Positions 14,545 through 16,002 of a stretch of 64,000 nucleotides of DNA are shown here, piece by piece. A model generated the notes under the pieces. It was given only the letters and a program-made list of their open reading frames with translations, did no database searches and was not told the origin of the DNA. How positions within the stretch are numbered: position 1 is the stretch's first letter; every line of letters begins with the position of its first letter. This DNA is from a virus: IMG/VR virus record IMGVR_UViG_3300008255_000114, positions 1 through 64,000 of that record; one strand, given 5' to 3'. The position numbers and the translations under genes are program-made.

Positions 14545-16002
14545 AAAAGCCCCGCATCTGCGGGAACATTTGTATGAGTACATACCTGAAGCTAATCTGT
14601 CTTCAGTGGAACTCAATTGTTCAGTACGTCTACCTAGACATTCTCAGTGTCTTACTTCTGACCTAAAACAATAATAGGTTTTGAGTCATTAATGCTTGCG
14701 CCATTTATATACCGACCAACCTCTAATAATGGGAGAAAATCGGTTTGCGTTCTTTGTTCACATGATCGCTTACGTGTCTAACACCCAAAACCGTTTTATC
14801 CTAGGCAGGGTTATGTCCTAGTGTTTTCGCTAACCACCTCTAAGAGGAACCAACTTCACGTTGTATGGCGCTTTCCATTTGCCTTAAACTATGACATCGT
14901 TGAGTAGGACATAGCAAGGACTTCATCACCACCAATGTCGTAACCATTGGAACTTTCTTTTAATAGTGTACGTTAGGCTCCCTCATATTAAGACTCTGTA
15001 TAAATCGGTCATAACATTCAGCCGTGTAATCCTCGCAGTATACTAGTGCGGAGCATTCTTACAATGGTTTCAGTATAACCTCTACCATAGTGCCTACCAT
15101 ATGTAATTATAATTAGAACTCATTATTAATGAGGGAAGTATATAAATACCAACAAACATTATCGCGCCAATGAAGTGCTTTATGCTAAGACTACCTTTAA
15201 ACCATTGGCAAGTATACAGTAGAATTAAACAAGGTGATAATAGTAGTCTTGGGTAATCAATATTCCAACGCCCCTCTTACTACCACCTATACACAGACCC
15301 GAAATTAACCTACTTAGTCGCATCGCGCAGAAACCATATACTTATGGCAAGGTGTTGAACCAATATCTGGGTTCGGTGCAGAATATGACTTATATGAAAG
15401 ACACTGCCATCTCTATAACATGGATGTGGTCATACAGTATCACGTTACCAACAACTTAGTCTTGAGTTTATACACATCAGAAGTGTTGCATATTAGGCAT
15501 TTGTCATCACAAGTATTATGAGAGGGAACGTACCTTGCATTGTTTGCCATTTAAATTTCTAACCATAGTCGCAATTTCTTATGGTATCTCAGATAGGAGG
15601 TGGCTTATCCTCACTATTTTACAACACACCAGCTTGGTAGCTAGAGCACTGACTCGTCACATTTTGAAGTACTTGATACGGAGCCTTTAATTATGGATTA
15701 GCACTCTAAGGCCGAGACTAACCACACTACCGAAACATTTACACAAGAACCTTAAAATATACACTCGTAACGTGAATGACTCGATCACGCCAGTTCGTTA
15801 TATGTAGACTCACCTCTCACCTGTAATATTATATCTAATCAGGTGATGACACCACTTGGTGCTTATTCAGCTTTATCAGCCAATGAAGTGACTAAAGGTA
15901 AAGCACATTAGTCAGTTTGGTTCCGACTCTCACATCAGCATTATTTCCAATGATCACGGCAAAACATATTGTAACTACATACAAGTCATATACGGTGTTT
16001 TT
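14545..16002 (-). ncRNA. Candidate giant structured ncRNA (about 1.45 kb)
   Basis: No credible ORF; many helices and at least two pseudoknots; GNRA-type loops on the minus strand; ends in CCCGCA/TGCGGG-GCTTTT terminator. Confidence 0.6.

Follow-up and report, generated by a model that had tools for sequence, protein, structure and literature searches.

The transfer RNA (tRNA) operon of phage T4 encodes eight tRNAs and two small stable RNAs (species 1 and 2, function not known), which are co-transcribed. Lytic phages also have long noncoding loci, such as the source of the top transcript of phage ICP1; their function is not known and they were considered too divergent to compare. The most abundant ICP1 transcript is a noncoding RNA (ncRNA) of about 800 nucleotides (nt) from the 1 kb that separates gp139 from gp140 (Barth et al. 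2020, PMC7567579), and this long noncoding RNA (lncRNA) locus is conserved in related phages despite divergent sequence (reviewed in Boyd et al. 2021, PMC9040626). A position in a phage next to a tRNA is also the usual setting of the GOLLD and ROOL RNAs (PMC7567579). Here we analysed positions 14545–16002 of a 64,000-nt stretch of phage DNA (positions 1 to 64,000 of IMG/VR record IMGVR_UViG_3300008255_000114; hereafter the window). The initial annotation, made from the sequence alone, proposed that this region is a single giant structured ncRNA, about 1.45 kb long, with long-range helices and pseudoknots that fold it in the manner of GOLLD, ROOL, and OLE. Our comparisons lead to a different reading. 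The region is probably a modular array of small, exchangeable structured RNA cassettes that lies behind a tRNA and is related to the ICP1 lncRNA locus.

Mosaic structure of the array

The host virus of the array is a Vibrio/Shewanella-type myophage; among named phages, Shewanella phages 1/4 and 1/40 and several Vibrio phages are the most closely related to it. We compared the region with 14 related phage arrays in which 19 segments were scored as present or absent; some of the related loci are referred to below by L numbers. The region and its edges resolve into the following segments.

15628–16008, minus strand: cassette M7, found only in phage 1/40, at about 80–89% identity
15538–15627, minus strand: cassette M6, two conserved hairpins, 92–97% identity in 1/4, 1/40, and L010
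15489–15537, minus strand: variable insert carrying one arm of the 550-nt helix proposed in the initial annotation, kept in L010, with an unrelated longer insert in 1/4 and 1/40
15459–15488, minus strand: junction motif of 28–30 nt, the most conserved element of the arrays, 97–100% identity in six of them
15293–15458, minus strand: cassette M4, 87% identity to 1/4, in which it follows M3 instead of preceding it
15094–15226, minus strand: cassette M3, with the hairpin GCCAAUG...CAUUGGC, 89% identity in 1/4 and 97% in L011
14968–15057, minus strand: module A, a new 90-nt structured RNA motif supported by covariation
14783–14965, minus strand: cassette M2, parts of which occur in 1/4, 1/40, L010, L014, and Vibrio phage 1.084.O
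14573–14779, minus strand: cassette M1, whose 45-nt 3' core (14616–14660) is common to the ICP1 lncRNA locus

Each cassette had a different distribution across the arrays. The closest relative, L010/L012, has flanking genes that are 92–95% identical, and its noncoding part measures only about 770 nt in all; L010 lacks 14879–15458 and 15628–16440 (about 1.4 kb) and includes a private segment of 160 nt. In phage 1/4, M3 and M4 stand in reversed order, M7 and module A are missing, and other inserts are present. M7 is present in phage 1/40, from which M3 and M4 are absent. The arrays of L006 and L011 are 95–98% identical to one another, and between them module A is exchanged at exact boundaries for an unrelated segment of 200 nt; they differ further by insertion of a piece of M3. 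It appears from these patterns that the roughly ten cassettes are gained, lost, swapped, and reordered independently, and thus behave as separate genetic units.

Proteins of the L011 lineage are only 25–45% identical to those of the window, yet the cassettes that the two have in common are 85–100% identical as DNA. Because cassette identity is so far above protein identity, these data point to horizontal exchange of the cassettes between phages. The junction motif at 15459–15488 is likewise shared with phages whose proteins are only 25–45% identical, and it occurs once per genome. It marks cassette boundaries and may act as a promoter or as a site of processing or recombination. We considered whether it could be a repeated promoter and rejected this because it has a single genomic copy; a related 9-mer is found seven times, but in mixed orientations. 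This 9-mer, GTATAAACT, is expected about once in the genome, and an A precedes it at six of its seven sites (15465, 6167, 21158, 31255, and 35764 in the window, 101128 and 101592 in the genome). It may be a phage promoter core.

Module A

Module A was first detected as a 78% match to Vibrio phage 1.063.O, where it lies in an otherwise unrelated gap lacking open reading frames (ORFs). Pattern scans, a covariance model, and relaxed BLAST searches located it at ten loci, with one copy per array, including Vibrio phages 1.084.O, 1.193.O, F96, 184E37, and 355E48.1 and three metagenomic lineages. In four of these (1.193.O, 184E37, 355E48.1, and F96), a tRNA-Arg/Gly is followed by 1.2–1.7 kb with few or no credible ORFs, and module A lies in this interval. 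Exact-pattern scans for further copies added one variant from metagenomes and none from a second scan of viral sequences.

The motif consists of two hairpins that vary freely in sequence, a short invariant helix, and invariant junctions. Across its nine distinct sequences, 89.9% of cells were paired as compared with 75.9% in shuffles (none of 500 reached the observed value), in an alignment that was fitted to the model and with a count that leans towards structure. The covariation score was 0.343 versus 0.110 in shuffles, and controls with slid partners paired in 33–45% of cases. The first five sequences, aligned independently with MAFFT, led to the same picture. The G-U pairs of the motif fit the minus strand only. 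Module A matched no Rfam family, and when its pattern was sought in 185,579 representative bacterial genomes, all 16 matches were chance or coding matches. Together, these comparisons identify module A as a new predicted structured RNA motif with clear covariation.

Noncoding nature of the region

No ORF of at least 40 amino acids was found within 14822–15534 or 15691–16201, and there was none of at least 60 amino acids from the tRNA-Met (16444–16518) to the next gene (14135–14497). With ORFs of at least 60 amino acids counted, the ORF-poor gap from 14675 to 16782 is the largest in the window. To gauge coding constraint we aligned M7 with its relative. Substitutions fell 28/27/21 over the three codon phases and indels were 1, 2, 4, 5, and 7 nt long. 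As a control, a flanking gene gave 5/7/19 and an indel of 21 nt. Because the substitutions in M7 lack codon phase and its indels are not multiples of three, M7 behaves as noncoding sequence. The stop-to-stop frames of the region had no significant match in Pfam or PHROG. Small or decayed protein genes were therefore rejected as its content, since both codon periodicity and Pfam or PHROG remnants are absent.

Similarly, within 14545–16002 no tRNA remnant was seen, either as an Rfam tRNA match at E up to 10 or as a T-arm/acceptor unit by scan, and relaxed ARAGORN runs returned low-score calls only. In the absence of T-arm/acceptor units, decayed tRNAs were also rejected as the content of the region. 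Rfam searches placed no family in it, at the gathering threshold over the whole window or at E up to 10 on 13800–17200. The remark in the initial annotation that the region is more GC-rich than other spacers was borne out. The GC content is 0.39 compared with 0.359 for the genome, and most other gaps have 0.28–0.35, with only two reaching about 0.38.

Hairpins of several cassettes stay paired in relatives through G-U pairs that are possible on the minus strand only. This includes local hairpins of M7. In M2, two local hairpins covary or stay paired by wobble changes, and in M3 an inner mini-hairpin changes in sequence with its shape kept. We conclude from these alignments that the region is a genuine noncoding RNA locus, predicted to be read on the minus strand, and unusually long for a phage.

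These results bear on two other explanations. One is that the region is a non-functional spacer. Scars of recombination and decayed genes for tRNAs or proteins would have piled up there, in a tRNA region that homing endonucleases visit. The mosaic structure, the indels, the HNH endonuclease genes that occupy the same place in some relatives, and one degenerate tRNA-like unit nearby (16294–16381) would all fit this. Against it, 14545–16002 has no T-arm/acceptor units or protein remnants and has a GC content above that of spacers. Module A shows compensatory changes, cassettes are 85–100% identical across phages whose proteins are 25–45% identical, and the probably homologous locus in ICP1 has the highest expression of any in that phage (PMC7567579). 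We consider this explanation very unlikely.

The other is that the region acts as DNA rather than as an RNA gene, for instance as a replication origin, a packaging site, or a cluster of promoters. It is a large noncoding region, and it is rich in promoter-like matches (19 compared with 13.5 ± 3.3 expected). However, the terminator and tRNA lie on one strand, and pairing that is maintained by G-U on one strand only is a signature of RNA. A search for repeats found no tandem repeats and no direct-repeat families beyond chance pairs, and an origin or iterons were rejected on that basis. A DNA-level element is, in our judgement, the least probable of the explanations considered here.

Folding statistics and the proposed long-range helices

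The long ORF-free, GC-enriched stretch beside a phage tRNA is what gives the idea of a single giant RNA its appeal, and the complementary segments on which the idea was built do exist. All eight pairings that had been given as exact were recovered, and a ninth was imperfect, as had been said. Exact inverted 7-, 8-, and 9-mers in 14545–16002 numbered 95, 31, and 8, which is the level expected by chance (85 ± 13, 22 ± 6, and 6 ± 3 in mononucleotide shuffles). The minimum free energy (MFE) of the whole 1,458 nt was –324.1 for the plus strand (z +0.14) and –374.1 for the minus strand (z +0.27), no better than that of dinucleotide shuffles on either strand. In sliding windows of 150 nt, only two terminator zones stood out.

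We then followed the individual pairings into the relatives. The 9-bp helix 14812–20/14905–13 has three changes in its upstream arm in phage 1/4, where the other arm is invariant; L010 has one arm only and L014 has neither. A local hairpin around 14893–14918, which competes with this helix, covaries in L014. Of the first proposed pseudoknot, the hairpin 15166–72/15203–09 and its loop are retained in relatives without the pseudoknot partner. Arm 15243–50, which was to pair with 15187–94, falls in a segment unique to the window and is absent from both relatives that have M3. In the second, between loop 15901–06 and 15859–64, a C-to-A change in the loop in phage 1/40 is uncompensated, and the hairpin that presents the loop (15889–95/15908–14) is kept there through wobble pairs. 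The pair 15817–23/15840–46 is unchanged in 1/40 with an indel in the loop, which fits a local hairpin and is not informative.

The 550-nt helix fared no better. Its arm at 15522–33 is present in L010 without the partner in module A, and the module A arrays of L006 and L014 lack the arm. The pairing with 14534–50 that was to close the domain runs into the terminator and its tail, and it had been given as imperfect from the outset. Of the GNRA-type loops, CAUUG-GAAA-UAAUG loses a pair in 1/40 without compensation, and GC-GCAA-GC has a stem of just 2 bp. Thus, as judged from these alignments, none of the proposed long-range helices and pseudoknots holds up in relatives; in each case an arm is missing or a change is uncompensated.

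Taken together with the lack of any Rfam match at E 10 and with close relatives that reorder the region or miss over half of it without keeping the long-range pairs, these data largely refute the giant fold, which we now regard as highly improbable. The report of a single transcript of about 800 nt from the probably homologous ICP1 locus remains in its favour. What stands of the initial annotation is a noncoding RNA locus on the minus strand that is distinct from GOLLD, ROOL, and OLE; the single 1.45-kb long-range fold does not stand. Two of the grounds that the initial annotation itself named for giving up its reading apply, or nearly so: the folding energy does not surpass that of shuffles, and the homologs present a patchwork of units with different distributions.

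Probable relation to the ICP1 lncRNA locus

The core of M1 (14616–14660) is found at 84–94% identity in phage 1/4, L010, Vibrio phage 1.084.O, and about 70 ICP1 records. The match to ICP1 (87%) had an E value of 1e-4 against the whole phage database in a relaxed search of phage genomes. In ICP1 the core lies inside the 1-kb ORF-less gap between ORF140 and ORF139, and in all five lineages that bear it, it stands immediately before the intrinsic terminator of the unit. A 31-nt piece of M4 also matches the ICP1 gap, although weakly (84%, E 0.012), and the remainder of the locus cannot be aligned, which agrees with the published account of how this locus usually diverges. The ICP1 gap shares a 47-nt piece with phage 1.063.O, and other cassettes of the gap recur in Vibrio phages 1.063.O and 1.084.O, both of which have module A. 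In these two phages the gap is upstream of homologs of ICP1 lysis-cluster genes; a position directly upstream of the lysis genes was seen in L005 and L046. No homologs of ICP1 ORF137–139 adjoin the array of the window, and a partial match to ORF138 lies at about 94.6 kb of the genome.

Several points weigh against reading the region as an ICP1-related array of independent cassettes. The link to ICP1 consists of the 45-nt core and the weak 31-nt match, and unlike the ICP1 locus, the locus in the window is not upstream of lysis genes. The ICP1 RNA-sequencing signal is described as one transcript of about 800 nt (PMC7567579), which leaves some room for a long functional RNA. For the cassettes besides module A, with two to three sequences per cassette, folding z scores of the alignments ranged from –0.07 to –1.8, and for M7, too, the folding statistics of the alignment are weak. 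Finally, the noncoding nature, the mosaic structure, the covariation of module A, and the likeness to the ICP1 locus come directly from the sequence comparisons, whereas the transcription, processing, and function of the array are inferred. On balance we still consider it the probable one.

ToxI units in related arrays

The noncoding arrays of two metagenomic phages, L006 (375–408, minus strand) and L011 (2522–2554, minus strand), each carry a single perfect unit of the type III antitoxin ToxI. The unit is identical at 34 of 34 positions to repeats on a Yersinia plasmid that form a tandem array immediately before a ToxN/AbiQ toxin gene. It is also found at L043:2501–2537 and L044:2501–2538, and 229 phage records contain it. 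Two unrelated phages (Klebsiella phage PWKp9S and Pectobacterium phage DU_PP_I) have it within a tRNA array, right after a tRNA. Pseudo-ToxI is an experimentally proven phage counter-defence RNA (PMC3475682), and the finding hints that arrays of this kind can carry anti-defence RNA cargo; we do not extend this to the cassettes of the window.

This leads to an explanation in which the whole array would be an RNA anti-defence island. The cassettes would be decoys or mimics, either of host immunity RNAs or of the ligands that RNA-binding effectors recognise, expressed from a tRNA-type operon and exchanged from phage to phage under arms-race selection. Besides the ToxI unit, the L006/L011 arrays contain module A, the 28-nt motif, and M3, all three in common with the window; hypervariable and horizontally exchanged cargo is typical of counter-defence loci, and genes for an RNA ligase and a CCA-adding-type enzyme are nearby. 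On the other hand, the ToxI unit had no match in the genome of the window, the cassettes of its array matched no plasmid sequence and no Rfam family, and the module A pattern was not found in the representative bacterial genomes beyond chance or coding matches. Moreover, a single ToxI unit was inactive in phage PhiTE until it was expanded (PMC3475682). We regard this explanation as rather unlikely.

A broader idea, which we put forward only tentatively, is that tRNA operons and ICP1-type loci form one highly expressed and horizontally shuffled platform for RNA cargo, whose cassettes (module A, M1–M7, and pseudo-ToxI) would be decoys or inhibitors of host proteins for defence or RNA metabolism. 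If this is true, it would give the ICP1 lncRNA a function and would define a new class of RNA-based counter-defence islands.

Layout of the predicted transcription unit

Apart from the cassettes, the unit contains the following features.

16780–16808, minus strand: sigma-70-like promoter TTGACA-17-TAATAT upstream of the RNA unit, a consensus match only
16444–16518, minus strand: tRNA-Met (CAT), the sole canonical tRNA of the unit (Rfam tRNA, 44.4 bits; ARAGORN)
16382–16446, minus strand: conserved spacer with a second promoter-like site, CTGGCA-17-TATAAT, 97% identity to the inter-tRNA spacer of 1/4 and 1/40
16294–16381, minus strand: tRNA-like unit with a non-canonical body, from the T-arm/acceptor scan and relaxed ARAGORN
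16007–16186, minus strand: hairpin domain of 180 nt closed by a 22-nt inverted repeat (arms 95% complementary), outside 14545–16002
14550–14565, minus strand: intrinsic terminator ending the unit, a 6-bp GC-rich stem and a U run, in a low-z folding window (14550–14699)

A hexamer pair identical to that of the promoter-like site at 16808–16780 lies directly upstream of the tRNAs in L010. The place of the tRNA-Met is taken in relatives by tRNA-Arg and tRNA-Gly. The tRNA-like unit, which has an acceptor stem, a T arm (loop UGCAAAU), and an ACCA end, occupies the position of the tRNA-Arg of relatives; at 79% similarity, its 3' part resembles a unit found in L006. The 180-nt domain has no counterpart in any relative save for a 40-nt block (16169–16208) at its upstream edge.

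The simplest reading of this layout is a protein-free transcription unit of about 2.2 kb on the minus strand, of which 14545–16002 would be the distal 1.5 kb. The unit would run from the promoter-like site through the tRNA-like units and tRNA-Met and about ten cassettes of 30–380 nt to the conserved 3' element and the terminator. We infer that strong transcription yields it as a single precursor. The precursor could remain as beads on a string, or it could be cut into small stable RNAs by host RNases, with RNase P acting at the tRNA and RNase E/III at hairpins. Each cassette would then act alone, most plausibly by binding a host or phage protein or RNA.

Beyond the terminator, a 120-amino-acid ORF (14135–14497, minus strand) with no family match lies between the terminators at 14565–14550 and 14129–14111. 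It is missing from L010, whose array ends directly at the second terminator, and it looks like a recent gene insertion, going by this comparison.

Genomic setting

The window is part of a 103-kb phage contig, and identical sequence is present in aquifer metagenome runs. In the four such runs that we examined, only the identical phage was found, at low depth, with no variants with which to test pairing, and among the public runs containing the window sequence no RNA run was listed. A search of IMG/VR with the flanking proteins returned only the L010/L012 lineage.

The genes flanking 14545–16002 are on the minus strand and include those for the CCA-adding-type nucleotidyltransferase, the RNA ligase, and the large terminase. 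The terminase gene is split by two group I introns (9017–9274 and 9579–9792, minus strand), so that one ORF (9760–10194) encodes the N-terminal domain and another (8211–9032) the C-terminal domain; L010 has five intron matches in the corresponding area. The same phage genome has a second gap, at 65296–67536 of the contig, with 2.2 kb that lack ORFs of at least 70 amino acids and have a GC content of 0.33. Module A does not occur there.

Comparison with known systems

We argue that the reading as a giant ornate RNA is wrong for this region, and that the locus offers three handles on phage lncRNAs. First, such loci appear as mosaics of discrete cassettes that move between distant Vibrio and Shewanella phages. 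Second, module A is a new motif backed by covariation, and the 45-nt element on the terminator side ties tRNA-linked arrays to the ICP1 lncRNA. Third, a counter-defence RNA that is already known, the ToxI antitoxin unit, is present in sister arrays. Given discrete mobile cassettes, module A, the shared core, and ToxI, the function of phage lncRNAs therefore becomes testable cassette by cassette in culturable phages such as ICP1, 1.063.O, and Shewanella phage 1/4.

The array resembles the T4 tRNA operon in that tRNA genes and non-tRNA stable RNAs would be joined in one protein-free unit and released by host RNases. It differs in that a single tRNA is accompanied by about 1.9 kb of non-tRNA RNA whose content is shuffled, and the two have no sequence relation. 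With GOLLD, ROOL, and OLE it has in common that it is large, noncoding, phage-borne, and adjoins a tRNA, here the tRNA-Met on the same strand. Unlike these RNAs, it matches no Rfam model, varies in content between close relatives, and has no conserved multi-domain architecture and no long-range covarying helices. Like the pseudo-ToxI locus of phage PhiTE (PMC3475682), it places short noncoding RNA units in a phage tRNA/ncRNA region, although the array of the window contains neither a ToxI unit nor tandem repeats.

The closest likeness is to the ICP1 locus. The locus in the window is about twice as long and lies behind tRNA and tRNA-like genes, whereas ICP1 has no module A and no tRNAs. Both loci are ORF-less gaps of at least about 1 kb that are co-oriented with their neighbours, both have the shared core beside the terminator, and both are otherwise highly divergent. 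Because of the shared core, its position before the terminator, and the pieces in common with the ICP1 gap, the locus in the window is best classed, from these sequence comparisons, with the ICP1-type lncRNA loci, of which it would be a larger variant linked to tRNA genes.

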